From Bacilli bacterium (GTDB lineage: Bacteria > Bacillota_I > Bacilli_A > RF39 > UBA660): 64,000 bases of DNA. Below, in pieces: positions 11,251 through 48,723 of the stretch (within the stretch, counting starts at the first letter, position 1; every line of letters begins with the position of its first letter). The stretch lies in assembly GCA_017409025.1 (NCBI GenBank), contig JAFQTN010000005.1:12650-76649 (forward strand), given 5' to 3'. The notes beneath the pieces were generated by a model that searched no databases, was not told where the DNA came from, and saw only the letters and a program-made list of their open reading frames with translations. The translations under genes were made by a program, and so were the position numbers.

Positions 11251-11310
11251 TATAATATCAAATGTATTTATTACTATGACTTGTATTAGTCATGGCGAAA
11301 GGAGAATAGT

Positions 11311-11630: not shown

Positions 11631-12074
11631 ATGAATATAGGTATAACTAATGATCACAGAGGAGTAGAAGTAAAACAATTTTTGACAGAATATTTAACTA
11701 GATTGGGATACAATGTAATAGATTATGGAACTGACAGTGAAGAACCAGCAGATTTTCCAGATTATGCTAAAAAGTTAGGATTAGGAATATTATCAAAAGA
11801 AGTTGACTTAGGTATCGCTATTTGTGGAACAGGTATTGGAATGAGTATTGCCCTAAATAAAATGAAAGGTATATATTGTGCTAAAGTATCAAATCAAAGT
11901 GAAGCAGCACTATGTAAAGCCCACAATGATGCCAATACTATCGCTATATCTGAAGAAATGGATAGAGAACTAATGAAAGAAGTAATAAAAACTTTTACAG
12001 AAACACCATTTTCTAATATAGATAGATATAAAAATAGAAATAATAAAATTAAGGATATAGAAAATAATGTATAA
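11631..12074 (+). CDS. rpiB: Ribose-5-phosphate isomerase B
   Basis: RpiB/LacAB family pattern: DHRG, ICGTGIGMSIALNK. Confidence 0.9.
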   Translation: MNIGITNDHRGVEVKQFLTEYLTRLGYNVIDYGTDSEEPADFPDYAKKLGLGILSKEVDLGIAICGTGIGMSIALNKMKGIYCAKVSNQSEAALCKAHNDANTIAISEEMDRELMKEVIKTFTETPFSNIDRYKNRNNKIKDIENNV

Positions 12075-12255
12075 TTTATTATTATATTCAATTATCTTAG
12101 TAATAGTAATTTGGACTATGGACGGAGTAAATATTAATGCTATCTTCAAAAAAAATAGAATCTATCAAGCAAGAGTATTCTATATAATGATAGTTTTTAG
12201 CATAACTTATCTAGTCACAAATTTTATAATAGATTTTATAAACTGTTTAAAATAA
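12067..12255 (+). CDS. Small two-TM membrane protein (DUF1146/YwzB-like)
   Basis: 62 aa with two hydrophobic segments. Its position next to spoIID resembles the B. subtilis ywzB neighbourhood. Confidence 0.45.
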   Translation: MYNLLLYSIILVIVIWTMDGVNINAIFKKNRIYQARVFYIMIVFSITYLVTNFIIDFINCLK

Positions 12256-12286
12256 TAAGGAAGTATGAATTAAGAAAAGAGGTTAT

Positions 12287-13210
12287 ATGAAGAAAATAAT
12301 AATCTTTATAACAGTATTAATTTTTATTCCTTTTTTTATTGTCATAATATACAATAAAAATTATAAAGAAATAGAATTAAAGTATATTAGTACTACTTAT
12401 ATAAGAGTGAAAAAATTAAAAGATGATACTATCAAAAAAATTCCTTTAGAAGAATATATTGTCGGAGTTTTAGCTGGAGAAATGCCTATAAGTTTTGAAT
12501 TAGAAGCATTAAAAGCCCAAGCTGTTGCATCTCGAAGTTATGCTTTAAAAAGAATTGAGTATAATAAAGATAAAGAATATGATGTCGTAGACAGCGTTAT
12601 GAATCAAGTATATTTAGATGAAGAACATTTAAAAGAAGCCTGGGGAATTAATTATGTTAAAAATATTAACAAATTAAGAACCGCAGTTAATGAAACCTTA
12701 GATGAATATTTAGAACATAACGGTTCCATCGCAGATGCATTATTTTTCTCAACTAGTAATGGTTATACCGAAGATAGTCAAAATATTTTTAATTTTGATT
12801 GTAATTATTTAAAAAGTGTAGAAAGCCCATGGGATAAAGATGTGTCTAGTGCATACAAATATCAAAAAGCAATGAAATTAACAGAATTTTATAAAAAAAT
12901 AAACATTCCATATAGTAAAAATTTAAATATTGAAATATTAAAAAGAAGTACTACTAACAGAATACTTCTTTTAAAAATAAATAATGTAGAATTTAAAGGA
13001 ACTGATCTATATAATAAATTATCTCTAAGATCTACTGACTTTGAAATAGAACTTCTTGGTGAAGAAGTAAAAATAACTACTAAAGGATATGGACATGGAG
13101 TAGGAATGAGTCAATATGGAGCGCTAGGTATGGCTCTAGAAGGATATAGTTATGAAGAAATATTAAAACACTATTATAAAGATACTGAAATAACAAAATT
13201 AAAAAATTAA
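12287..13210 (+). CDS. spoIID: Stage II sporulation protein D (lytic transglycosylase)
   Basis: SpoIID/LytB domain: EEYIVGVLAGEMP...EALKAQAVASRSYAL, and GHGVGMSQYGA. Confidence 0.9.
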   Translation: MKKIIIFITVLIFIPFFIVIIYNKNYKEIELKYISTTYIRVKKLKDDTIKKIPLEEYIVGVLAGEMPISFELEALKAQAVASRSYALKRIEYNKDKEYDVVDSVMNQVYLDEEHLKEAWGINYVKNINKLRTAVNETLDEYLEHNGSIADALFFSTSNGYTEDSQNIFNFDCNYLKSVESPWDKDVSSAYKYQKAMKLTEFYKKINIPYSKNLNIEILKRSTTNRILLLKINNVEFKGTDLYNKLSLRSTDFEIELLGEEVKITTKGYGHGVGMSQYGALGMALEGYSYEEILKHYYKDTEITKLKN

Positions 13211-13256
13211 GGTATATAAAGTTAATTTTTGTTAAAACTTATAATAGGTGATTGAA

Positions 13257-13892
13257 ATGATTAAAACAAATTTAAAGAATTTAACTGTTCCTGCTATCTA
13301 TACATTAGCTTTATTAGTATTTGGAACAAGTATGTACTTAATTCAAAAAGCAGTAAATAATCAAACATTTGAAGATAACACGAATATGGAGTATGTAGAT
13401 AAAGAAATAGTAAATGATAATATATATATTCCTGTAGTAAGCCAAACTAACATTATAATTAAACCATATATAAATGAAGAAGTAAGTGTAAGTAAAACAT
13501 TTTATGATTATATGGGAGAATCAGCTAGTCAAGAAAATTCTATAATCTATTATGAAAATACATATATGCAAAATTCTGGTATAGATTATAAACACACAGA
13601 AATGTTTGAAGTGGTAGCTATATTAGATGGTACAGTAATTGAAGTAACAAATAATGAAATATTAGGTCAAACTATTAAAATAAGACATGAAAATGATTTA
13701 ATTAGCACATACCAAAGCCTAGAAGATTTAAACGTTAAAGTAGATGATACTATAGTAAGAGGTCAAGTAATTGCTACAAGTGGCTCATGTTCACTTTATA
13801 GTAGTGATTACAACCTACATTTTGAATTAACTCATCAAGGAAAAAATGTTAACCCAGAAGAATATTATGAAAAAACAACTGACGAATTATAG
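13257..13892 (+). CDS. SpoIIQ-like LytM (M23) domain protein
   Basis: N-terminal TM segment and a C-terminal LytM fold (IKIRHENDLISTYQSL, NLHFELTH). Motif 1 is degenerate (NSGIDY). Clostridial-type spoIID-spoIIQ-spoIIID-mbl order. AGGTGA RBS before the ATG at 13257. Confidence 0.6.
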   Translation: MIKTNLKNLTVPAIYTLALLVFGTSMYLIQKAVNNQTFEDNTNMEYVDKEIVNDNIYIPVVSQTNIIIKPYINEEVSVSKTFYDYMGESASQENSIIYYENTYMQNSGIDYKHTEMFEVVAILDGTVIEVTNNEILGQTIKIRHENDLISTYQSLEDLNVKVDDTIVRGQVIATSGSCSLYSSDYNLHFELTHQGKNVNPEEYYEKTTDEL

Positions 13893-13940
13893 GCATATGC
13901 CTTTTTTTCTCTAATATAATTTACTAAAGGGGTAATAACA

Positions 13941-14204
13941 TTGAATAGATATATCGTAAAAAGAGTTCTTGAGGTAGCTAATCATATATTAGATACTAAA
14001 GAAACTATAAGAGAAACAGCTAAAAAGTTTAATATAAGCAAAAGTACAGTTCATAAAGATTTACAAGAAAGATTAAGTCAAATAGACATAAATAAGTATA
14101 ATATGGTAAAGAAAATAATGAATGAACACATAGAAACAAGACATATAAAAGGTGGAGAATCAACTAGACAATTATTTCTAAGAAAAAGGCAAGTTACACT
14201 ATAA
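13941..14204 (+). CDS. spoIIID: Sporulation transcriptional regulator SpoIIID
   Basis: HTH TIRETAKKFNISKSTVHKDL, 87 aa, TTG start, located upstream of mbl. Confidence 0.9.
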   Translation: MNRYIVKRVLEVANHILDTKETIRETAKKFNISKSTVHKDLQERLSQIDINKYNMVKKIMNEHIETRHIKGGESTRQLFLRKRQVTL

Positions 14205-14249
14205 AAAACTGTAAATATATGGTAAAATATACATAGAAAGGGTGATAAT

Positions 14250-15239
14250 ATGTTCAACAAAGATATTGGAATAGATTTAGGAACAGCAAACGTTCTAATA
14301 TACATCAAAGGACAAGGTATAGTACTAAACGAACCTAGTGTCGTAGCAATAGATTCTGATACTAAAAGACCTCTTGCCGTAGGATCAGAAGCAAGAGAAA
14401 TGCTAGGAAGAACACCCGGTAAAGTAAAAGCTATCAAACCAATGAAAGATGGTGTAATTGCTGACTTTGAAACAACAGGTATTATGCTAAATTATTTTAT
14501 AAAAAAAGTAAATGGAAAAAGTTTTTTTCAAAGACCAAGAATATTAATATGTTGTCCATCAAATATAACACAAGTAGAAAAAAATGCTATTAAAGAGGCT
14601 GCTGAAAGAACAGGCGCTAGAAAAGTATTTCTAGAAGAAGAACCAAAAGTAGCTGCCGTAGGTGCCGGAATGGACATTTCAAAACCATCAGGAAACATGG
14701 TAATAGATATTGGCGGAGGTACAACAGATATTGCTATCTTATCTTTAGGTGGAATCGTAGAAAGTGCTTCTATTAGAATCGCTGGAAATGCCTTTGATAA
14801 TGATATTATTAAATACATTAAAGATAAATATAAACTTCTAGTCGGGGAACGTACTGCCGAAGATATAAAAATAACAATTGGTACAGTCTTCCCAGGAAGT
14901 AGAAATGAAAAAATGGAAGTAAGAGGAAGAGACTTAGTTACAGGACTTCCACATACAATCACATTAACTAGTGAAGAAGTAGAAGAAGGACTAAGAGAAA
15001 GTGTTTATACAATAATAAATGCCGCTAAGGGAATCCTAGAACAAACACCTCCAGAACTATCAGCTGATATTATAGATAAAGGAATAGTATTGACAGGTGG
15101 CGGATCACTAGTAGATGGATTTAGTCAAATATTAGCACAAGAATTAAAAGTTCCTGTATTTACTGCTGAAAGCCCATTAACATGTGTAGCAGAAGGAACG
15201 GGTATTCTTTTAGATAATATTCATTTAGTAGACAACTAA
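14250..15239 (+). CDS. mbl: Rod shape-determining actin homolog MreB/Mbl
   Basis: IGIDLGTANVLIY, DIGGGTTDIA, and GIVLTGGGSL motifs. Confidence 0.9.
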   Translation: MFNKDIGIDLGTANVLIYIKGQGIVLNEPSVVAIDSDTKRPLAVGSEAREMLGRTPGKVKAIKPMKDGVIADFETTGIMLNYFIKKVNGKSFFQRPRILICCPSNITQVEKNAIKEAAERTGARKVFLEEEPKVAAVGAGMDISKPSGNMVIDIGGGTTDIAILSLGGIVESASIRIAGNAFDNDIIKYIKDKYKLLVGERTAEDIKITIGTVFPGSRNEKMEVRGRDLVTGLPHTITLTSEEVEEGLRESVYTIINAAKGILEQTPPELSADIIDKGIVLTGGGSLVDGFSQILAQELKVPVFTAESPLTCVAEGTGILLDNIHLVDN

Positions 15240-15276
15240 AAAAGTAATGGTTAATCAATAAAACCATTACTTTTTA
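15238..15276. terminator. Bidirectional rho-independent terminator between convergent genes
   Basis: AGTAATGGTT...AACCATTACT hairpin flanked by an A-run and a T-run. Confidence 0.7.
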
Positions 15277-15685
15277 ATTTCTTTTCAATTTTCTCAGTAC
15301 TTGCATTACCATTAATTCTATTAGCAACTGTTGTTTCTTCACCATTCTTTAAAAACACTGTAACAGGAGTTCCATCAAATCCTATATATGATTCAAAAGT
15401 TTTCTCCTCTTCAGCAGTTAATAAATCTACATCGATATAGTATATATCAAGTTTATATTTATTTGCAACTTTTTCTAATTTAGGCTTATAACTAGCGCAA
15501 TGACTACAAGTAGTTTGACTAATAAGTAAAATAACATCTTCCTTATTTTGTATCTTATTCATTAAATCTTCATATTTAATTTCGTTAAGATAAGTCTTAC
15601 TCATAATCTTATCGCCAATAAAAGCACCTACAAGAATAACCAAACAAATACTTACCAATATAATTACTTTTTTCTTTATGCTCAT
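15251..15685 (-). CDS. Membrane-anchored thioredoxin-fold protein
   Basis: N-terminal TM segment, CSHC redox motif, and a GTPT cis-Pro region. Confidence 0.75.
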   Translation of the reverse strand: MSIKKKVIILVSICLVILVGAFIGDKIMSKTYLNEIKYEDLMNKIQNKEDVILLISQTTCSHCASYKPKLEKVANKYKLDIYYIDVDLLTAEEEKTFESYIGFDGTPVTVFLKNGEETTVANRINGNASTEKIEKKLKSNGFID

Positions 15686-15739
15686 AACATCACCTATAAA
15701 TATAATAACATTTAATAAGTAATTTGTCTATCTTTACTA

Positions 15740-16285
15740 TTAACTACTGAAATAATCTTCCAATAAAAGATTATTTTTATATAAATATTCAGCTATATCA
15801 CCAACATATCTATAGTGCCAAGGTTCATAATTATATCCTGTCCTATCTTCCATATTTTTAGGATATCTCAAAATAAATCCATATTTATGTGAATTATTAA
15901 TTAACCAATTAATTTCTTCACTATCTTCAACTTCATGTTCAATATAACATTTATCTCCTTTATATATACATATATCTATTGCAAGACCAGTTTGATGCTC
16001 TGATGTACCAGGCTTAGCGATACTTCTAAAAGTATAAGCAAACCCTTTTTCCTTAAGTAACTTATTATAAATTGCCTCCTGATACATATAATCTCTATAA
16101 CCACTCATAATATCTATATTATATCCTAACTTTTTAGCATCTTCTCGCATTAAATTAAATTGTTTCAATACCAATTTATTAATTAATATACCATCCCTAT
16201 AACTACTAAGAGCATCTACTAAATCATCTGGTATATAGGATTTATCTAATGTATTATCTTTATTAACTAAAATCTTATAATCCAT
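15740..16285 (-). CDS. D-alanyl-D-alanine carboxypeptidase, VanY/M15B family
   Basis: SGYR, SEHQTGLAID and EPWHYRY motifs. Confidence 0.85.
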   Translation of the reverse strand: MDYKILVNKDNTLDKSYIPDDLVDALSSYRDGILINKLVLKQFNLMREDAKKLGYNIDIMSGYRDYMYQEAIYNKLLKEKGFAYTFRSIAKPGTSEHQTGLAIDICIYKGDKCYIEHEVEDSEEINWLINNSHKYGFILRYPKNMEDRTGYNYEPWHYRYVGDIAEYLYKNNLLLEDYFSS

Positions 16286-16380
16286 AAATTCACCTATGAT
16301 ATTATATTCTAAATTGTAAAATAGGTACTAAATGTAAAAAAGAAGAACATTCAATAGAATAAATTCTTCTTTTTTGTATA

Positions 16381-18474
16381 TTAAACTTTTGTTAAGCTCT
16401 TATGATTTTTCATCATTTTCTTAACTCCATATGGGTGTGGGAAAGCAATAGTAACAATTGATTTATCAACCATGATTACAACACCATCACCAAAGTCTGG
16501 ATGATTAACATGGTCTCCTGCTTCAAAAGATACATCTTCTTTTCTAAATATATCTTCTTTAGAGAAATTGATTACTTTATCAACAAGAGTAGTTTTATTG
16601 TTTTCTATATCCAAATATTTACTATCAATTTCATCCATAAATCTACTAGGCATATTAATTTGCGTATTACCAAATAACATTCTCTTCTTAGCATTTAACA
16701 TCCATAAATTTTTTCTAGCCCTAGTAATAGCAACATAACAAAGTCTTCTTTCCTCTTCGATAGCAGCCATTGTTCCTTCATTAATTGAATTATAATGAGG
16801 AAATATCCCTTCTTCCATTCCAATAACAAAAACATTGTCAAACTCTAGTCCTTTAACGGCATGTATTGTCATTAAATTAACCTTATTATTTCCATCTTGA
16901 TGTTCAGATACATCACTTACTAAAGATATTTCATTCAAAAAATCCGTTAAAGAAATTACTCCATATTCTTCTTCGTAACTTTTAGTAATGGATTTAAATT
17001 CCTCTAAGTTCTCAAGTCTTATTTCAGATTCTAAACTCTTGTCACTTACTAAATCTTCTTTTAAACCACTATCATTTAAGACAATTTCAACCATATCAGT
17101 AAGTGTTGCATTCTCACACTTATCACGCATACTTAAAACTAATTCTTTAAACTTTAATTCTTTACCACTATCTATTGATTCAAATAATGATGTTCCATTT
17201 ATATTAGCAACATTAGCTAAATTCTCTAATGTCTTATCACCAATACCTCTTTTAGGAGTATTAATAACTCTAAGTAAACTAACATCATCGTCTTGATTAT
17301 TAATTAATCTTAAATAACAAAGTAAATCTTTAATTTCTTTTCTATTATAGAAATAAAAACTACCAATAATCTTATAAGGAATACCATTCTTTAACATCTC
17401 TTCTTCAATAAGTCTAGATTGTGCATTAGTTCTATATAATATAGCAATATCTTCATAATTAACATTATTATCATGTAATTCTTTAATAGTCTTAGAAACA
17501 TAACTACATTCATCTTTGTCACTATCAGTCTTTATATATTTAACCTTACTACCTATATCATTATTACACCATAAATTCTTATCTTTTCTTTGCTTATTAT
17601 GTTTAATAACACTATTCGCAGCATCCAAAATATTTTGAGTAGACCTATAATTTTCTTCAAGTAGAATAACCTTACAATCAGCATAATCCTTCTCAAAATT
17701 TAAAATATTCTTAAAATTAGCCCCTCTAAAAGCATATATTGCCTGATCATTATCCCCAACGACAAATATATTTTTATGATTATTACATAACATCTTACTA
17801 AATATATATTGTGCTTCATTAGTATCTTGATACTCATCGATTAAAACATATTTATATTTTTCTTGATAATATTTTAACGTATCAGGATATTCCTTAAATA
17901 ATTTAATAGGTAATAAAAGTAAATCATCAAAATCAACAGAATTGTTGATAACTAATTTCTTATTATATCTCTCATATACTTGAATAATATTTTGATCGAA
18001 TTCTAACTTAGCATATTGACTAGGACTCATAAGTTCATTTTTAGCAGAACTAATCTTATTCCTAATCTCTCTAGCGTTATAAAATTTAGGATTTAAATTC
18101 ATCTCTTTCATTATCTTTTTAACTACAGTCAAAGTATCATCACTATCTAAAATAACAAAATTACTCTTATATCCTAATTTACTATAATTTTCTTTTAATA
18201 ATCTTAAGCCTAATGAATGAAATGTAGATATTTGTATAGAACTAGCCTCAGGCCCTATAAGTTTAAAAACTCTTTCTTTCATCTCTTTAGCAGCCTTATT
18301 AGTAAAAGTTATAGCCAATATATTCTCTGGCATTATTCCATTCTCAATTAAATAAGCAATTCTATTAGTTAAAACTCTAGTCTTACCAGACCCAGCACCA
18401 GCTAAAACTAACATCGGTCCATTAATATGAGTAACCGCTTCTCTTTGTTCTTTATTTAATCCATTTAAGTCCAT
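16381..18474 (-). CDS. pcrA: ATP-dependent DNA helicase PcrA (UvrD family)
   Basis: AGAGSGKT Walker A, DEYQDT, and YRS..I motifs. GGAGG RBS supports the start at 18474. Confidence 0.92.
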   Translation of the reverse strand: MDLNGLNKEQREAVTHINGPMLVLAGAGSGKTRVLTNRIAYLIENGIMPENILAITFTNKAAKEMKERVFKLIGPEASSIQISTFHSLGLRLLKENYSKLGYKSNFVILDSDDTLTVVKKIMKEMNLNPKFYNAREIRNKISSAKNELMSPSQYAKLEFDQNIIQVYERYNKKLVINNSVDFDDLLLLPIKLFKEYPDTLKYYQEKYKYVLIDEYQDTNEAQYIFSKMLCNNHKNIFVVGDNDQAIYAFRGANFKNILNFEKDYADCKVILLEENYRSTQNILDAANSVIKHNKQRKDKNLWCNNDIGSKVKYIKTDSDKDECSYVSKTIKELHDNNVNYEDIAILYRTNAQSRLIEEEMLKNGIPYKIIGSFYFYNRKEIKDLLCYLRLINNQDDDVSLLRVINTPKRGIGDKTLENLANVANINGTSLFESIDSGKELKFKELVLSMRDKCENATLTDMVEIVLNDSGLKEDLVSDKSLESEIRLENLEEFKSITKSYEEEYGVISLTDFLNEISLVSDVSEHQDGNNKVNLMTIHAVKGLEFDNVFVIGMEEGIFPHYNSINEGTMAAIEEERRLCYVAITRARKNLWMLNAKKRMLFGNTQINMPSRFMDEIDSKYLDIENNKTTLVDKVINFSKEDIFRKEDVSFEAGDHVNHPDFGDGVVIMVDKSIVTIAFPHPYGVKKMMKNHKSLTKV

Positions 18475-18601
18475 ACTTCCTCCTTGTACCTTCATTAATA
18501 ATTATACCATAAAAGAAAAGTATTTAAGACAAATATTATTGACTGAGATAAATAATTTCTATATAATTAACTTATAATTAATAAAAGAAAGAAGGTATAT
18601 A

Positions 18602-19441
18602 ATGACAAACATAAAACCATTTATGAAAAGGACTATAGCTTATGCAATAGATACAATTATAATATTAGCAGTATCATCACTAATATCAAGTATTCCATTT
18701 CTAAATAAAGGTATGGATGACTATCAAAAAACATACGATGAATACGAAGAAGAATATAATAAATATTCAGAATATCTTACTCTATTAGATAAATCATATA
18801 AAGATGAAGAAATAACTGAAGAAGAGTATACTAAATTAACAGAATCAACTGAATATAAAGGAATAATAGAAACTAAATATGAAGATAAAAAACTATCTCA
18901 AGATGAATATGATGATGCAGTGGAAGAAATAAATGAAGAATTTGATAAAATAGCTAAAGACTATGTATACATCTTAAGTAAAAAAGGAATCTCTAATTCA
19001 ATAATAACTCTAGTGTGTACTTTATTATATTTTGGAGTAATTCAATATTTCTTAAAAGGAGAAACTATTGGTAAAAAGATATTTAAATTAAAAGTAATAT
19101 CTGCAAATAATAAAAAATTAAATATCTTTAATTATCTTTTTAGATCATTAATAGTAAATGATATCTTATTAAATACCATTGGAATATTATTCTTAGCATT
19201 TGCCACTAAAACAGTATATCTAAAAGCAGATTCTCTAATAACAACTTTAGTGAGCGTAGTTGAAGCAGTAATAATTTTCTTAGTTCTTACTAGAGAAGAT
19301 CAAAGAGGATTACATGATTTATTGTTTAATACTAAAGTAATTTCTACTATAGAAAGTAATAAAGAAGATAATAAGATAATTGAAGTAGATATTGAAGAAA
19401 AAGAGGTAAAAAATGTCAAATCAAAAAGAAAAAAACAGTAA
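18602..19441 (+). CDS. RDD-family membrane protein with an acidic coiled insert
   Basis: RTIAYAIDTIIIL N-terminal segment and a C-terminal RGLHDLLFNTKVI motif. Confidence 0.7.
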   Translation: MTNIKPFMKRTIAYAIDTIIILAVSSLISSIPFLNKGMDDYQKTYDEYEEEYNKYSEYLTLLDKSYKDEEITEEEYTKLTESTEYKGIIETKYEDKKLSQDEYDDAVEEINEEFDKIAKDYVYILSKKGISNSIITLVCTLLYFGVIQYFLKGETIGKKIFKLKVISANNKKLNIFNYLFRSLIVNDILLNTIGILFLAFATKTVYLKADSLITTLVSVVEAVIIFLVLTREDQRGLHDLLFNTKVISTIESNKEDNKIIEVDIEEKEVKNVKSKRKKQ

Positions 19442-27832: not shown

Positions 27833-28603
27833 ATGACTAACATAAGTGGAAAAGAAAATGAATACGAATTTGTAAAATATCTAAATGGAAAGAAGATATC
27901 AGAATTAAATCCTATGTTTAGGGGTTTTATAGATAAATTATTTCCTAATGAAACTAAAAATTCAACAATTAAATGTTGGAAAAATCACTACAAAGAGAAA
28001 GCAGATATATTTATTAAAATTAATGGATCAATGAAAGGCATAAGCATAAAGAAGGGAATAAAAAATTCAGTTCATGTAGAAAGAATATCGGATTTTATCC
28101 ATTTCTTAATAGAAAACAAAGTAGATAGAGAAGTGGTACTTGAATATTTAAAATATCAATATGCAGATGGTAGTACAAATGGCAAGGGAAATAAACGAAT
28201 ATCGGCGGAAGAATATAAAAAAGAAAATCAACACAATATTGATAAAATAAATCATGCTTTTAGAAACGAAAAGTTATTAAAAAGTGCTACAACTAGATTC
28301 ATTACTAAAGGAAAAAATTCAAACTATTATATTTCGGCTATAATTTATGGTGAAGTAAATGACTTTGTGTGGGCAACAAGAGAAGAAATAGAAAAAATAA
28401 TGTTATCAAAAAAAGATATTTATTCAAGTGCTGTACATTTTGGAGCAATGACATGCCAACCTAAAAATAGATGTTTAAACTATAATCCATTATATGAAAA
28501 AGATAGGTATTGTGTTCAAATCAAATGGTATAACATATTTGATGATATTATTGAGTATATGAACAAAACTGTTGACAAAGAATTTCGAAAACAAGAAGTT
28601 TAA
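27833..28603 (+). CDS. Hypothetical protein, possible PD-(D/E)xK nuclease (MspI/HpaII-like pattern)
   Basis: KADIFIKINGSMKGISIKKG gives D-x12-S-x-K, reminiscent of the MspI D...N-x-K site. AGGAGG RBS and its own terminator hairpin. No methyltransferase is nearby. Confidence 0.3.
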   Translation: MTNISGKENEYEFVKYLNGKKISELNPMFRGFIDKLFPNETKNSTIKCWKNHYKEKADIFIKINGSMKGISIKKGIKNSVHVERISDFIHFLIENKVDREVVLEYLKYQYADGSTNGKGNKRISAEEYKKENQHNIDKINHAFRNEKLLKSATTRFITKGKNSNYYISAIIYGEVNDFVWATREEIEKIMLSKKDIYSSAVHFGAMTCQPKNRCLNYNPLYEKDRYCVQIKWYNIFDDIIEYMNKTVDKEFRKQEV

Positions 28604-28671: not shown

Positions 28672-28725
28672 AAATGACAAAGAAAAACTCACACCACTAA
28701 TCAAGTGTGTGAGTATTAATCTAAA

Positions 28726-28756
28726 TGGAGCGACTGCAGGTGATTTCCCGCACCCC
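28726..28756 (-). other. tRNA-3'-end-like remnant, copy A (...TCGCTCCA), with adjacent minus-strand terminator hairpin 28688-28713
   Basis: TGGAGCGACTGCAGGTGATTTCCCGCACCCC matches copy B at 29 of 31 positions. It shares only TGGAGCG with the intact tRNA-Gly. No 5' acceptor complement was found. Confidence 0.4.
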
Positions 28757-28792
28757 TTAAAAAAATAAAACCCTTATAAATAAAGGGGAAAC

Positions 28793-28809
28793 GGGTTAGA
28801 TTCCCATCA
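28793..28809 (+). pseudogene. tRNA-Gly T-arm/acceptor fragment, plus-strand orientation
   Basis: GGGTTAGATTCCCATCA versus GGGTTCGATTCCCATCA of the intact tRNA-Gly, 16 of 17 identical. Confidence 0.4.
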
Positions 28810-28918
28810 AAGGTTAACACTTTTTTGAACAAAATATTAATAAAAGTTATTTAAACTAATAATTAATAATGTAAATTTTATTTATTTTTAATCAACTTAT
28901 TTGAGATATTGAACAAAC

Positions 28919-29012
28919 CTACAAATTTACCACAAAACGACCACAAAAAGTCTACAAACAGACCACAATTTGTTTTATAAGAACCTCAAAATAATCTCAA
29001 AAAATCTCACAA
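28919..29012 (+). repeat. 11-bp phased C(C/T)ACAA / CTCAAA hexamer array upstream of the module-1 promoter
   Basis: Hexamers start at 28919, 28930, 28941, 28952, 28963, 28985, 28996 and 29007. All sit on one 11-bp lattice with a single empty slot at 28974. Confidence 0.8.
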
Positions 29013-29037
29013 AATTTCTTCGATCACCAACGTTAAT

Positions 29038-29066
29038 GTTTCAAACAAAGGTTTTTATGATATAAT
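29038..29066 (+). promoter_or_regulatory. Module-1 promoter (extended -10 TGATATAAT)
   Basis: TGaTATAAT at 29058-29066 and GTTTCA at the -35 distance. The block TTAATGTT(T/A)CAAACAA is conserved with module 2. Confidence 0.45.
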
Positions 29067-29090
29067 TTAGTTGAAAGGAGTGAATAAAAA

Positions 29091-29708
29091 GTGGAGAATC
29101 AAAAAAATAATAAAGGAGTAATAGCATTACTTATTGTAATAATTGTTATATTATCAGTTTTATGTGTACTATTTGCTACAGGAACAATAACTTTAAAATC
29201 TAATGACGTAGATAATAGTGGAACAAACGAAAATATTAATGATAATAACCAAACTAATGAAGAAAATAATGATGAAGAAAAAGAATCTAATTGGGTTGAT
29301 TATTTATTATCTCGTCATATACTTGATGCAAAGGTTTCAAGGATTAGAAGTAAAGACCTTGGAGATACAGAAGATTTTAGTAAAACAGAAACTATCACAA
29401 TGGATGAAGTTAACGAAATTTTATCAAATTTTAAAAATAGCAAATTAACTAAAACTTGGAGTCAAGGTAGAGGTGGACCAGATAAAGACCATTTAACTAT
29501 TGCTTACGAAAATAATGATCAAAAATATGAATTTGAAATTTATTATGGAACTATTGTTGTTGATAAATTAGACGATGAATTAAAAAACATTTTAGAACAA
29601 AATAAATATGATGAAAAAAATGCTGAATATAAAAATATGGAAGGTTCATTTTATTTCTATAGCATAGATAACTATAATGAAACTATTTTTGATAAATATT
29701 TTAATTAA
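29091..29708 (+). CDS. Module 1 gene A: type-II membrane-anchored protein, N/D-rich linker, unknown ectodomain
   Basis: GTG start after AAAGGAG. The first ~33 aa are nearly identical to 30588..31229, and the rest is unrelated. Confidence 0.7.
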   Translation: MENQKNNKGVIALLIVIIVILSVLCVLFATGTITLKSNDVDNSGTNENINDNNQTNEENNDEEKESNWVDYLLSRHILDAKVSRIRSKDLGDTEDFSKTETITMDEVNEILSNFKNSKLTKTWSQGRGGPDKDHLTIAYENNDQKYEFEIYYGTIVVDKLDDELKNILEQNKYDEKNAEYKNMEGSFYFYSIDNYNETIFDKYFN

Positions 29709-29810
29709 TTAGGTTTAACGAGAGAATTGCATCTCTCTTTTTATTTTTTACTGGATATTTACCAAATTATGCGGTATTGTTTGTGTGAAGTTAATATATA
29801 ACTTCAGGAG

Positions 29811-30185
29811 GTGAATATAATCAAAATAATATTTGTAGAAAGATTGTTGTTTGATAATGATGTAAAAGAATCATTAGAAAGGTCGTTTAAAAGAAGTGGA
29901 ATAAAGTTTACATATTATGATGGATATATTTTAAGATTTGAAAAAACTAATGTATATTCAATCACACCACATAGACTAGTTTTTAGTAAGAATGAATACA
30001 ATTTACTGGTGTTATATTATGATGAATATCATGAGACAGATGAACTATTCTTTGTAGATGGAGAAAAGTATACATTACAAGGGATTAAGAGATATGTTAG
30101 AAATTATTTTATAAGTAAAACTTCAAATAAACCTACAAAAGATAGTACAAAGAATAATACAAAAAGACCTAAGATAGGTCTATAG
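29811..30185 (+). CDS. Module 1 gene B: conserved 124-aa protein with a basic K/T/N-rich tail, unknown function
   Basis: GTG start after AGGAGG. 117 of 124 aa are identical to 31323..31697. Confidence 0.7.
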   Translation: MNIIKIIFVERLLFDNDVKESLERSFKRSGIKFTYYDGYILRFEKTNVYSITPHRLVFSKNEYNLLVLYYDEYHETDELFFVDGEKYTLQGIKRYVRNYFISKTSNKPTKDSTKNNTKRPKIGL

Positions 30186-30244
30186 ATGAAGTAGGGTTTG
30201 GGAATAAAAAAACTAGTGCTATTACACACTAGATCAATTACACA

Positions 30245-30275
30245 TGGAGCGACTGCTGGTGATTTCCCGAACCCC
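30245..30275 (-). other. tRNA-3'-end-like remnant, copy B, with adjacent hairpin 30213-30232
   Basis: TGGAGCGACTGCTGGTGATTTCCCGAACCCC. It is preceded by the same hairpin and spacer found beside the intact tRNA-Gly. Confidence 0.4.
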
Positions 30276-30436
30276 TTAAATGCTCAAATCCAAAGAAATA
30301 AAGTGTTCTATTAGTTTAAAAATTATATATTTTTAATATATGTATATAAAAGTATACCTATATTTTTGAAAAAACAACAGATAAAAATTTTAAATTTTTT
30401 GTTTTTAATATATTACATTTGATGTTATAGATAAAC

Positions 30437-30528
30437 CTACAATCAGTCAACAAAAAATTTAAAATAAATTGCAAATGAGTTGTAAATTAAGTCACAATAA
30501 ATAGTACAAAATTTCAACAATTATCAAA
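30437..30528 (+). repeat. Weaker ~11-bp phased (N)CA(A/C)AA array upstream of the module-2 promoter
   Basis: CTACAA at 30437, CAACAA at 30448, TGCAAA at 30470, TGTAAA at 30481, TCACAA at 30492, GTACAA at 30504, CAACAA at 30515. The extended -10 TGGTATAAT lies at 30555-30563. Confidence 0.45.
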
Positions 30529-30587
30529 TTTAATGTTACAAACAATATAATTAATGGTATAATTTAAATGAAAGGAGTGAATAAAAA

Positions 30588-31229
30588 GTGGAGAATCAAA
30601 AAAATAATAAAGGAGTCATAGCATTACTAATTGTAATCATTGTTATATTATCAACATTATGTATTTTATTTGCTACAGGAACTATTAGTTTTAATTCAAA
30701 TAAAGCTAATGATGATGAAATAAATGAAAATATCAATGATACCAACGATGATAATAATGTTCAAACAAGTAATATTAAAGTTGAAGATATCAAAGAAATA
30801 TTCGAAGTAGCATACAACTATTATGAATTGCCAACAGTTTATTGCGGAAAATCTGATCATACAATCGTAAATATTTATGGAAAAGATAGATATGCATCAA
30901 CTGAATTTACTAATTACGATGCATTGCTTAATTCGTTGAAAAAGTATATGAGTGTAGAAGTAATATCTGGTAAAACTCCTTGGGCGGCTACAACAAAAGA
31001 GTATTATTTAGAACAAGATGGTAAATTATATTGTGAAGAAACATATAAAGGTTATATGTATGGTCATGGAAATATAGAAGTAGAAATAACTTCACAAACA
31101 GAAAATAAAGTTATTTGTGTTGCTACTATGGAGTTAACCGACCCATCCGAAAATAAAACTTATGATAAAGTAAACTTAGTGTTAGAAAATATAGATGGTA
31201 ATTGGATTATTACATCTTATAAAAAATAA
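30588..31229 (+). CDS. Module 2 gene A: type-II membrane-anchored protein, N/D-rich linker, different unknown ectodomain
   Basis: Same GTG, RBS and anchor as module 1. The ectodomain contains Cys residues and ends in DGNWIITSYKK. Confidence 0.7.
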   Translation: MENQKNNKGVIALLIVIIVILSTLCILFATGTISFNSNKANDDEINENINDTNDDNNVQTSNIKVEDIKEIFEVAYNYYELPTVYCGKSDHTIVNIYGKDRYASTEFTNYDALLNSLKKYMSVEVISGKTPWAATTKEYYLEQDGKLYCEETYKGYMYGHGNIEVEITSQTENKVICVATMELTDPSENKTYDKVNLVLENIDGNWIITSYKK

Positions 31230-31322
31230 AATTAAGGAAAAACCTTAATTTTTTTTATTTAGCTGGATATTTATAAAATTATGCGGTATTGTTTGTGTGA
31301 AGTTAATATATAACTTCAGGAG

Positions 31323-31697
31323 GTGAATATAATCAAAATAATATTTGTAGAAAGATTGTTGTTTGATGGTGAGGTTAAAGAATCATTAGAAAGGTCGTTT
31401 AAAAGAAGTGGAATAAAGGTTTCATATTATGATGGATATATTCTAGGCTTTGAAAAAACTAATGTATATTCAATCACACCACATAGACTAGTTTTTAGTA
31501 AGAATGAATACAATTTACTGGTGTTATATTATGATGAATATCATGAGACAGATGAACTATTCCTTGTAGATGAAGAAAAGTATACATTACAAGGGATTAA
31601 GAGATATGTTAGAAATTATTTTATTAGTAAAACTTCAAATAAACCTACAAAAGATAGTACAAAGAATAATACAAAAAGACCTAAGATAGGTCTATAG
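31323..31697 (+). CDS. Module 2 gene B: conserved 124-aa protein (paralog of 29811..30185)
   Basis: Near-identical paralog with identical upstream leader and RBS. Confidence 0.7.
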   Translation: MNIIKIIFVERLLFDGEVKESLERSFKRSGIKVSYYDGYILGFEKTNVYSITPHRLVFSKNEYNLLVLYYDEYHETDELFLVDEEKYTLQGIKRYVRNYFISKTSNKPTKDSTKNNTKRPKIGL

Positions 31698-31716
31698 ATA
31701 GAGTAGGGTTTGGGAA

Positions 31717-31744
31717 TAAAAAAACTAGTGCTATTACACACTAG
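31717..31744 (-). terminator. Rho-independent terminator of tRNA-Gly
   Basis: On the minus strand, the CTAGTG...CACTAG hairpin is followed by a T-run (plus-strand A-run at 31717-31724). Confidence 0.6.
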
Positions 31745-31756
31745 ATCAATTACATA

Positions 31757-31830
31757 TGGAGCGGATGATGGGAATCGAACCCACGTGGTCAGCTTGGAAG
31801 GCTGAAGTTCTACCATTAAACTACATCCGC
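31757..31830 (-). tRNA. tRNA-Gly (anticodon UCC)
   Basis: The reverse complement GCGGATGTAGTTTAATGGTAGAACTTCAGCCTTCCAAGCTGACCACGTGGGTTCGATTCCCATCATCCGCTCCA folds as a cloverleaf. Anticodon loop is CTTCCAA and the CCA end is encoded. Confidence 0.95.
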
Positions 31831-31850: not shown

Positions 31851-31879
31851 ATTATAGTATATTCAGCCTTCCTTGTCAA
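31851..31879 (-). promoter_or_regulatory. Consensus sigma-A promoter for tRNA-Gly
   Basis: On the minus strand: TTGACA, 17 nt, TATAAT, about 20 nt upstream of the tRNA 5' end. Confidence 0.6.
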
Positions 31880-42593: not shown

Positions 42594-42670
42594 GGCGGAT
42601 TTGGTGAAGTGGTTAACACATTGGATTGTGGTTCCAACATACGTGGGTTCGATTCCCACAATCCGTCCCA
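42594..42670 (+). tRNA. tRNA-His (anticodon GUG) with encoded G(-1)
   Basis: G-GCGGATT...AATCCGT-C-CCA. The anticodon loop is TTGTGGT. The extra 5' G opposite discriminator C is the tRNA-His hallmark. Confidence 0.95.
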
Positions 42671-48462: not shown

Positions 48463-48510
48463 TATTGCAAAAATAAAAATGTATGTTATAATACATTAAA
48501 ATTAAAAAAC

Positions 48511-48723
48511 AAAGACCAAGAGGAGTAATCTATTATTTATTTAAAGAGAGTTAGTGTTTGGTGGAAACTAATAATAAATATGGATGAAGGTAGCTTGTAA
48601 GTTGTATATCTGAAATATAAGTAAGATATATCGTTAACTGCGTTAAAGTTTCAAGTGATAGATAAAATCTATAAGAAAGGTGGTACCACGGGTAAACTCG
48701 TCCTTTCATTATAGATTTTTTTT
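48511..48723 (+). promoter_or_regulatory. T-box riboswitch leader (probably tRNA-Val responsive) with terminator/antiterminator
   Basis: Promoter TTGCAA at 48465 and TATAAT at 48487. AGAGAG bulge, TGGTGGAAA distal loop, specifier region GAAGGTAGC at 48586-48594, and T-box GAAAGGTGGTACCACGGG at 48675-48693. A 15-bp terminator stem spans 48666-48717 and is followed by a T-run. Confidence 0.85.

Follow-up and report, generated by a model that had tools for sequence, protein, structure and literature searches.

Tandem single-cargo cassettes at the 3' end of a tRNA-Gly gene in an uncultured gut Bacilli genome: probable integrase-less units related to serine recombinase elements

A stretch of 64,000 nucleotides from an uncultured Bacilli bacterium of the RF39 lineage (GenBank assembly GCA_017409025.1, contig JAFQTN010000005.1, positions 12,650 to 76,649; hereafter the window, with positions counted from its first letter) contains two adjacent units of about 1.5 kb, each made of a variable gene, A, followed by a nearly constant gene, B. 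The question that this locus raises is what kind of unit keeps its downstream gene and exchanges its upstream one. A first-pass annotation, made from the sequence alone, had proposed an undescribed surface-protein/partner system shaped by cassette exchange. Our analysis revealed that the mosaic is real, yet the units are integrated mobile cassettes and not a two-gene functional module. That they were integrated at a tRNA end is, in our view, very probable. The interpretation that we favour as a whole, which we consider probable, is that they are mini-cassettes without an integrase, similar to cis-mobilizable elements (CIMEs), located at tRNA-Gly and mobilized in trans by a large serine recombinase (LSR), with B as an accessory factor.

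Three copies of the heptamer TGGAGCG, at 28726, 30245 and 31757, lie 1519 and 1512 bp apart, exactly as first annotated. They had been treated as landmarks that delimit the units, and it had been missed that the copy at 31757, whose reverse complement is CGCTCCA, forms the 3' end of a gene for tRNA-Gly(TCC) (minus strand, 31757-31830; ARAGORN; Rfam tRNA model, 71 bits), whose promoter TTGACA-17-TATAAT shows 12/12 matches (minus strand, 31851-31879). These last bases of the tRNA gene (31757-31763) are the integration core on the attB side, while the copies at 28726 and 30245 are attachment (att)-type repeats. Cassette 1 (28726-30244, plus strand, 1519 bp) is distal and cassette 2 (30245-31756, plus strand, 1512 bp) is tRNA-proximal, and both consist of core and arm, an A gene, a B gene and a terminator. 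Each unit opens with a 37-nt repeat, the att arm, with 35/37 positions identical between the copies at 28726 and 30245. At the distal junction (28726-28761, plus strand) the core TGGAGCG is followed by an element-borne pseudo-tRNA arm, ACTGCAGGTGATTTCCCGCACCCCTTAAA, which in the tRNA sense reads ..GGGGTGCGGGAAATCACCTGCAGTCGCTCCA. The middle junction (30245-30280, plus strand), equivalent to a reconstituted attP, consists of the end of cassette 1 (terminator and 13 nt), the core TGGAGCG and, after it, the cassette 2 arm. Read in the tRNA sense, the junctions are ..GGGTTCGATTCCCATCATCC-GCTCCA-TATGTAATTGATCTAG.. at the tRNA and ..AAGGGGTTCGGGAAATCACCAGCAGTC-GCTCCA-TGTGTAATTGATCTAG.. in the middle, both continuing into the element terminator, and ..AAGGGGTGCGGGAAATCACCTGCAGTC-GCTCCA-TTTAGATTAATACTCACAC.. 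at the distal end, where the host flank TTTAGA.. and a different terminator follow. GCTCCA is therefore common to all three junctions, and element sequence (TGTGTAATTGATCTAG.. and the terminator) follows the core at the first two only. This pattern is expected of two successive site-specific insertions at the tRNA end, giving attL, a reconstituted attP and attR.

The terminators are in agreement with this order of junctions. An identical hairpin had been described in both units, and it is indeed present (CTAGTGTGTAATAGCACTAG followed by TTTTTTT; minus strand, 30213-30232, with an identical twin at 31725-31744); its T-run, however, lies on the minus strand in both copies, so that the hairpin is placed to terminate the tRNA transcript and not that of B, which corrects the earlier description. 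The twin at 31725-31744 is predicted to terminate the tRNA-Gly transcript at present, in place of the tRNA's own terminator. Immediately to the left of the first TGGAGCG, at 28690-28709, stands a minus-strand terminator that differs from the element hairpin. It belongs to the native downstream flank of the tRNA (minus strand, 28690-28725; TTTAGA.. and then the hairpin, as judged from the terminator scan and from collinearity with the locus L109 discussed below), which now stands 3.03 kb from the tRNA, displaced by both insertions. Between the units, the block containing B (29753-30251 and 31265-31763) is identical at 482/499 positions (96.6%), the 5' block with the promoter and the 5' end of A at 139/163 (85%), and the central ~500 bp are unalignable. 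The previously given conservation of 95-97% thus holds for the 3' flank and not for the 5' flank, while the mosaic of conserved flanks around a swapped middle is real. Besides the tRNA itself, no known RNA was matched by the pseudo-tRNA arms or the B leader in Rfam at a permissive threshold.

An unoccupied site was found in another genome (loci from other genomes are given as L numbers). In L109, which was recovered by searching with the adjacent Tex gene and has a Tex 65% identical to that of the window, the tRNA-Gly(tcc) by Tex is joined directly to the native flank (GCTCCA|TTTAGA; an empty site in the window's own genome would read ..CCCATCATCCGCTCCATTTAGATTAATACTCACAC..), after which come a terminator and the remnant of a homolog of a restriction endonuclease (REase)-like gene, collinear with the window from 28725 leftward. 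The window therefore equals the L109 arrangement with a 3,031-bp insertion at the CCA end. The same tRNA has other occupants as well. Strains of another species with identical Tex (L034-L037) carry different contents after tRNA-Gly(tcc), and in L037 a B-like gene and an LSR follow the tRNA immediately. In L040 (Tex 92%) tRNA-Gly(tcc) is followed by a B-family open reading frame (ORF) and a serine recombinase, and in L057 (Tex 81%) two autonomous elements with B-like and LSR genes stand in tandem at the Tex-tRNA-Gly(tcc) site (11822-18700). The first of these comprises a B-like gene, a 640-aa LSR and a MobV-like relaxase (motif SPHMHIVGVP), and it is closed distally by the arm, GCTCCA and TTTAGA. 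Look-ups of the exact proteins neighbouring the array returned four contigs, all with the same arrangement as the window.

The plan of the cassettes recurs across genomes with considerable regularity. All recovered loci have the conserved hairpin, ~13 nt and TGGAGC behind the B stop codon, and in ten independent loci this TGGAGC is the end of an intact tRNA-Gly (GCC or TCC); the order of B stop, hairpin and tRNA-Gly was recorded in L001, L014/L025, L023, L024, L027, L028, L029, L031 and L032. The left boundary lies 1.35-2.4 kb upstream and consists of a host-specific terminator, ~12 nt, TGGAGC and a conserved arm of ~30 nt, with one variable cargo gene and then B between the boundaries. Arms of this kind bound cassettes in L001, L005, L009, L023, L025-L029 and L031-L033; the version GAATGAGAGTATGCTTCCAAACCCCTTT is present in L009, L023, L025, L028 and L031, and the window-type version ACTGCAGGTGATTTCCCG.ACCCCTT also in L001. 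In the latter locus a B gene ~90% identical to that of the window, with matching arm and terminator, is located at tRNA-Gly(GCC) by ffh, whereas the window cassettes are located at tRNA-Gly(TCC) by Tex.

The cargo, on the other hand, varies, and B follows unrelated genes in ~15 other loci. Small anchored proteins are encoded in the window, L005 and L022. Elsewhere the cargo is a 432-aa HExxH protein, cytoplasmic-looking proteins of 513 and 301 aa without anchors, an HD protein, a Peptidase_S51 or an aminoacyl-tRNA synthetase (aaRS), the last represented by a class II enzyme and two different tyrosyl-tRNA synthetases (TyrRS). The complete aaRS genes, one of class II HGTP type and two for different TyrRS, were located in L023 (8617-9885), L026 (8723-9913) and L027 (3292-4533), and they may be spare or inhibitor-resistant copies. 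Since B stands behind such unrelated cargo, it represents the backbone of the cassette and not the partner of a surface protein.

Regarding the cargo of the window, A1 (29091-29708, plus strand, GTG start) encodes a protein of 205 aa with an N-terminal membrane anchor, an N/D-rich linker and an orphan ectodomain, and A2 (30588-31229, plus strand, GTG start) one of 213 aa with the same anchor and a different ectodomain. The two are identical at 33/38 N-terminal residues and show no similarity beyond, in line with the first-pass annotation, which had also correctly noted the shared TTAATGTT(T/A)CAAACAA block and the extended -10 (TGnTATAAT) upstream of both ORFs. The A1 promoter reads GTTTCA-17-TGaTATAAT (29038-29066, plus strand; A2 counterpart at 30535-30563), and A1 has its own terminator at 29720-29737. 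No known family or solved structure was matched by A1 or A2 in Pfam, PHROGs, NCBIfam, PADLOC or PDB sequences, where only sub-threshold, low-complexity or anchor-driven matches appeared. The ectodomain of A1 has no relative among the loci examined; that of A2 has one in the 222-aa cargo protein of L005, with which A2 shares 38% identity along its entire length. The A-type 5' module (promoter, ribosome-binding site and membrane anchor of ~40 codons) stands nearly unchanged before different ectodomains in L005 and L022; from the -10 box to about codon 40, unit 2 of the window and L005 are identical over ~160 nt. A1 and A2 are cargo genes, and their products are putative membrane-anchored extracytoplasmic proteins; cassettes of this sub-class can fairly be described as swapping ectodomains within conserved flanks. 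Two other identities were considered for the A genes and rejected. A Mycoplasma-type variable surface lipoprotein would share the conserved 5' region, but there is no lipobox in MENQKNNKGVIALLIVIIVILSVLCVLF, and a repeat search of the region gave no internal tandem repeats. A toxin/immunity or polymorphic-toxin module, already argued against in the earlier annotation, does not fit a locus in which the downstream gene is constant (94%) and the upstream one variable, and no toxin domains were found. In L022 (2463-3760), an A-type cargo gene with a MENQK..-like anchor adjoins the transfer-messenger RNA gene, whose 3' end also contains GCTCCA (GCTCCAcca), which suggests ssrA as an alternative attachment site.

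B is encoded at 29811-30185 (B1) and 31323-31697 (B2), both on the plus strand; the 124-aa products of the ORFs are identical at 117/124 residues (94%), as had been reported. The B1 leader (29751-29810, plus strand; second copy at 31263-31322) contains a -35-like TGGATA (29752-29757), 17 nt and TATTGT (29775-29780), then a hairpin, GAAGTTAATATATAACTTC (29787-29805), and the Shine-Dalgarno sequence AGGAGG (29806-29811). Leader DNA is conserved in 14 loci more strongly than the protein, the identity of which falls to ~60%, and the hairpin reads GAAGTTAAT..ATTAACTTC across loci, with changes that are G·U-compatible, followed by GGAGG. The GTG taken as the start of B1 (29811) lies inside the Shine-Dalgarno sequence and is out of frame in L014, while an in-frame ATT, or ATC in the window, is conserved 7-8 nt after GGAGG (29806-29822 and 31318-31334 in the window, and 14 other loci). 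It appears that B probably starts at this ATC/ATT (29820 in B1, 31332 in B2) and not at GTG. Such a non-AUG start would be rare and of the infC type, and the weak start codon suggests that translation of B may be deliberately weak. B has no signal peptide, and its dN/dS of 0.17-0.41 between genomes indicates purifying selection and a gene that is functional. Another terminator-like hairpin on the minus strand (AGACCTATCTTAGGTCT and a T-run) was observed within the last B codons (30165-30181 and 31677-31693), and the K/T-rich C-terminal tail encoded there is found in window-type B proteins only.

As the first-pass annotation had stated, B could not be assigned to a known family either, since it gave no match in Pfam, PHROG, NCBIfam, PADLOC or PDB. 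A full hidden Markov model scan of 1.8 billion representatives returned 81 clusters, nearly all small (36-141 aa), without a convincing fusion, as the sole larger protein (326 aa) was the weakest match and aligned in several weak stretches. With a profile of the distant members 4235 proteins of ~90-100 aa were recovered, so that the family comprises >4000 members of ~90-125 aa, counted at 90% clustering. The relation between B and the group of 98-aa B-like proteins is supported by hhalign (probability 99.8%, E 2.6e-30). Homologs of B were found only in metagenomes and metagenome-assembled genomes of uncultured gut Bacilli ('Tenericutes', Ca. Scybalousia, Clostridium sp. CAG:914), and none was detected in the viral contigs, phage records and plasmid records searched. 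A first model built from close homologs only was poor (pLDDT 62), and a deeper alignment gave a confident β-α-β7-α AlphaFold model (pLDDT 85.4, pTM 0.73) with no significant structural neighbour in PDB or BFVD. The wide family keeps only G38, N47 and P53 (mostly followed by H54). An assignment of B to the HUH-like nucleases (IS200/IS605 Y1) or to a tyrosine nuclease (E-Y-H and YxxxY) was rejected, as YDEYHE and KxYxRxYF are conserved in the close subfamily only and the fold has no match. The libraries and literature searched contained no account of the B family, which is absence of evidence and not proof of novelty.

A possible role for B emerges from its distant relatives. The members P0382 and P0285 are each the first gene of an integrated element and are followed immediately by a serine recombinase of 592-594 aa. 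Six tRNA genes (Arg-TCT, Leu-TAA, Leu-CAA, Leu-CAG, Thr-GGT and Thr-CGT, in L046-L053) have the P0285 element inserted precisely behind their ..CACCA, and the element end is the same in every case. The element encodes a 98-aa B-like protein, the 592-aa serine recombinase, an SNF2 helicase and a DNA methylase, with the junction ~100 nt upstream of the B-like gene, and its recombinase is one with multiple tRNA targets. Altogether, seven pairs of B-like and LSR genes were identified (P0382, P0285, L009, L037, L040 and the two L057 elements), in each of which the B-like gene immediately precedes the LSR at the end of the element. Their B-like proteins are 25-65% identical to one another and the recombinases of the pairs form one clade. 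L041 contains an autonomous relative with an LSR, TnpV, a NikA-like protein and a relaxase. In L009 (9163-11126), L012 and L013 an ISL3 transposase lies beside a truncated serine recombinase, the first 189 aa of which share 79% identity with the LSR of L041. The insertion sequence may thus have cut the recombinase, and the locus shows an autonomous element decaying in place by tRNA-Gly(tcc).

What, then, are the window units? Neither is an autonomous integrative mobilizable element (IME) or integrative conjugative element (ICE), as each holds A and B only, with no integrase or relaxase of its own. They correspond to CIMEs in lacking integration and transfer genes, in keeping their att sites and in standing in tandem, and their autonomous relatives are in other genomes, not in this window. 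GCTCCA(T) at 31757, 30245 and 28726, together with the well-scored tRNA, places their integration at a tRNA 3' end, and L109 provides the unoccupied site. From these data we infer that the cassettes are non-autonomous derivatives of LSR-bearing integrative, mobilizable elements of uncultured gut Bacilli. Under this interpretation, the ~30-nt arm, which imitates the T-arm and the 3' half of the acceptor of the tRNA (GGGTTCG...CGCTCCA), would be an attP half-site mimicking the attB half-site. An LSR supplied in trans would recombine the attP of a cassette (terminator, 13 nt, GCTCCA and arm) with the tRNA end, and would in this way integrate and possibly excise cassettes. Successive insertions at the tRNA have moved the earlier cassette and the native terminator outward, and the element-borne hairpin would restore termination of the tRNA. 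B, probably kept low by its weak start codon, may be a directionality, targeting or regulatory factor. Being the only gene that every cassette keeps, it is most likely an accessory factor; that it assists recombination is a possibility to which we give somewhat less than even credence. To our knowledge, recombination directionality factors share no common sequence signature.

Several observations weigh against this interpretation. B points toward the tRNA junction in the mini-cassettes and away from it in the LSR elements. It has no detectable DNA-binding or catalytic motif, in addition to its fold being without a match in PDB/BFVD, and we infer its role in recombination from gene position only. 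Pfam annotation showed no recombinase among the array neighbours (about ±10 kb), and tblastn with six serine recombinase queries gave none across the 64 kb of the window; that this genome supplies one in trans is an assumption. The closest empty site is in a distant relative, that is L109, and no excised circle, same-species empty site or circular short contig carrying B was seen. Moreover, B is a pseudogene in L029, L031, L032 and L033, and many cassettes may thus be dead.

These last points lead to the view that the units are dead relics, LSR elements that decayed in place with B as a leftover, the conserved blocks being alike through gene conversion between neighbours. Apart from the pseudogenes, the lack of an LSR in the window and the lack of circular forms, the uniform arrangement of all four contigs carrying the exact neighbouring proteins speaks for it. 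However, the same backbone occupies two different tRNA-Gly genes, by ffh in L001 and by Tex in the window; purifying selection acts on B, and its leader shows strong conservation between genomes; and exactly one cargo gene with precise ends per cassette is not expected of the random decay of elements of 5-10 kb. We thus regard decay in place as unlikely.

It could also be argued that the cassettes are mobile, but that B is a selfish maintenance or conflict gene, such as a toxin/antitoxin, anti-defence or exclusion function, or a regulator protecting expression of the junction tRNA. B is the sole constant gene and a small orphan with a confidently predicted but unmatched fold; no recombination-type motif is conserved across the wide family, and the cargo of hot spots often serves conflict, the REase-like neighbour being an example. 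Against this, B has a fixed att-proximal spot immediately before the LSR, the classic place of an integration-module gene, in seven divergent families of elements, PADLOC gave no match, and there is no partner gene for a toxin-antitoxin pair. Such a function for B is, in our opinion, unlikely.

The original proposal of a pair, in which B would be a constant chaperone, regulator or immunity-like partner of a surface protein with an ectodomain swapped by cassette exchange, is largely refuted and appears very improbable. It is true that A and B lie side by side in the same orientation in both units, L005 and L022, and that the 5' module of A is conserved before different ectodomains. B, however, is not specific to MENQKNNKG-anchored genes but also stands behind TyrRS, class II aaRS, Peptidase_S51, the HExxH protein and other anchorless proteins, and its invariable link is to the tRNA 3' end and, in the wider family, also to the LSR, its relatives pairing with serine recombinases at tRNA ends. 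In addition, A ends in a terminator of its own, B is preceded by a conserved promoter-like leader of its own, and B lacks a signal peptide. A tandem duplication of a host locus next to the tRNA, with a middle that diverged later and no mobile element involved, would account for two head-to-tail units of nearly equal length, but it is contradicted by ectodomain regions that are unalignable rather than diverged, by unit boundaries that coincide with the tRNA CCA end and an arm conserved in many genomes, and by the empty site in L109 and the LSR elements at the same site in relatives, and can hardly be upheld.

How far do integrase-less cassettes at tRNA-Gly resemble known systems? CIMEs and the accretion of IMEs and ICEs at tRNA 3' ends have been described in Firmicutes, with integration and transfer genes lost, attL and attR kept, and chimeric attI/attP-like junctions (PMC5704250). 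The window cassettes share with them the lack of such genes, the att ends and the chimeric junctions, but they differ in that window-type units measure only 1.35-2.4 kb and follow a regular plan of one cargo gene and a constant B, in that the related autonomous elements use an LSR, and in a repeat of only 6-8 bp. Insertion at tRNA 3' ends is typical of tyrosine integrases, whereas serine integrases usually insert within genes (PMC5704250, PMC4701971). The ssrA islands of Dehalococcoides lie in tandem downstream of the tRNA-like tmRNA gene and are bounded by repeats of its 3' end; they carry an integration module with the LSR DsiB by att, and some islands without the module were proposed to be cis-mobilizable (PMC3146451). 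Those islands, however, range from several kb to tens of kb, with a 20-bp repeat, a six-gene module and no B-family gene, and they belong to another phylum and use another target. The autonomous relative in L041, with its LSR, TnpV, NikA-like protein and relaxase, resembles Tn4451/Tn4453 (TnpX LSR, TnpV, Mob; PMC5704250), and excision of a circle by the serine recombinase would be expected. Tn4451 differs in its low target specificity and in having no tRNA-end targeting. We know of no B-family gene reported in it.

Tycheposons of Prochlorococcus are cargo elements piled up at tRNA genes and flanked by partial tRNAs, with newer ones pushing older ones outward and degenerate remnants left behind (bioRxiv 10.1101/2020.12.28.424599). 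Unlike the window cassettes, they have mostly tyrosine recombinases (910/937) and replication genes, are much larger and belong to another phylum (bioRxiv 10.1101/2020.12.28.424599). Integron arrays are similar in outline, with small single-gene units, a recombination site, one attachment point and a recombinase outside the cassette. Here, however, there is no IntI tyrosine recombinase, there are no attC hairpins, the cargo has its own promoters, a protein gene is constant and a tRNA end serves as attachment. Identity as integron cassettes was accordingly rejected, as the junctions consist of tRNA-like arms, A and B are each preceded by promoter-like sites, and Pfam annotation of the array neighbours (about ±10 kb) showed no tyrosine recombinase, the whole window having been searched with serine recombinase queries only. 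The vsp/vlp/vsa loci of Mycoplasma consist of tandem genes with a highly conserved 5' untranslated region and signal or anchor, and divergent mature parts. The A genes of the window are comparable in their shared 5' region and anchor and their divergent mature part; they differ in having no lipobox (LSVLC does not fit), no internal tandem repeats, no invertase and no phase-variable promoter, and in that the repeats are att sites at a tRNA. The array differs from all these in its tiny units with their regular plan of two genes, in a core of 6-8 bp placed at the extreme CCA end, in the link of tRNA ends with serine recombinases and in the constant B. Tandem integrase-less cassettes at a tRNA are already known as a kind, and it is the B family linked to tRNA-end-specific serine integrases that is potentially new. 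Only tentatively do we propose that the B family is a new accessory component, for directionality or target selection, of an LSR clade inserting after the tRNA CCA, combined with an integron-like, trans-mobilized array of single genes at tRNA-Gly in gut Bacilli.

Next to the array, a gene for a 256-aa type II restriction-endonuclease-like protein is located at 27833-28603 (plus strand; PADLOC REase_II, 8.4e-12), without an adjoining methyltransferase gene. It may be an ancestral host neighbour of the tRNA or older cargo. Besides the remnant right after tRNA-Gly(tcc) in L109, a homolog with 33% identity lies inside the cassette array of L030; no att-like site that would define a third cassette was found between def and the REase-like gene. 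The window also contains ordinary Firmicute features unrelated to the array, namely a T-box leader (48503-48708, 143 bits), an L31 ribosomal-protein leader (11274-11304) and a tRNA-His (42595-42670).

If our interpretation is true, tiny, regular, single-cargo cassettes make up the hypervariable spot by tRNA-Gly across a large group of uncultured gut Bacilli, and this would explain the recurrence of these small ORFs and pseudo-tRNA fragments, as well as the assembly breaks around them. Serine integrases, together with their directionality factors, are in demand as tools for genome engineering. In this respect, the finding would point to an LSR clade with an unusual, simple target, the tRNA CCA end, with one element behind six tRNAs, and to a conserved LSR partner protein with an unmatched fold. 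For the bacteria themselves, it would mean that cargo such as surface proteins and spare aaRS may ride on serine integrases and not on the usual tyrosine ones.

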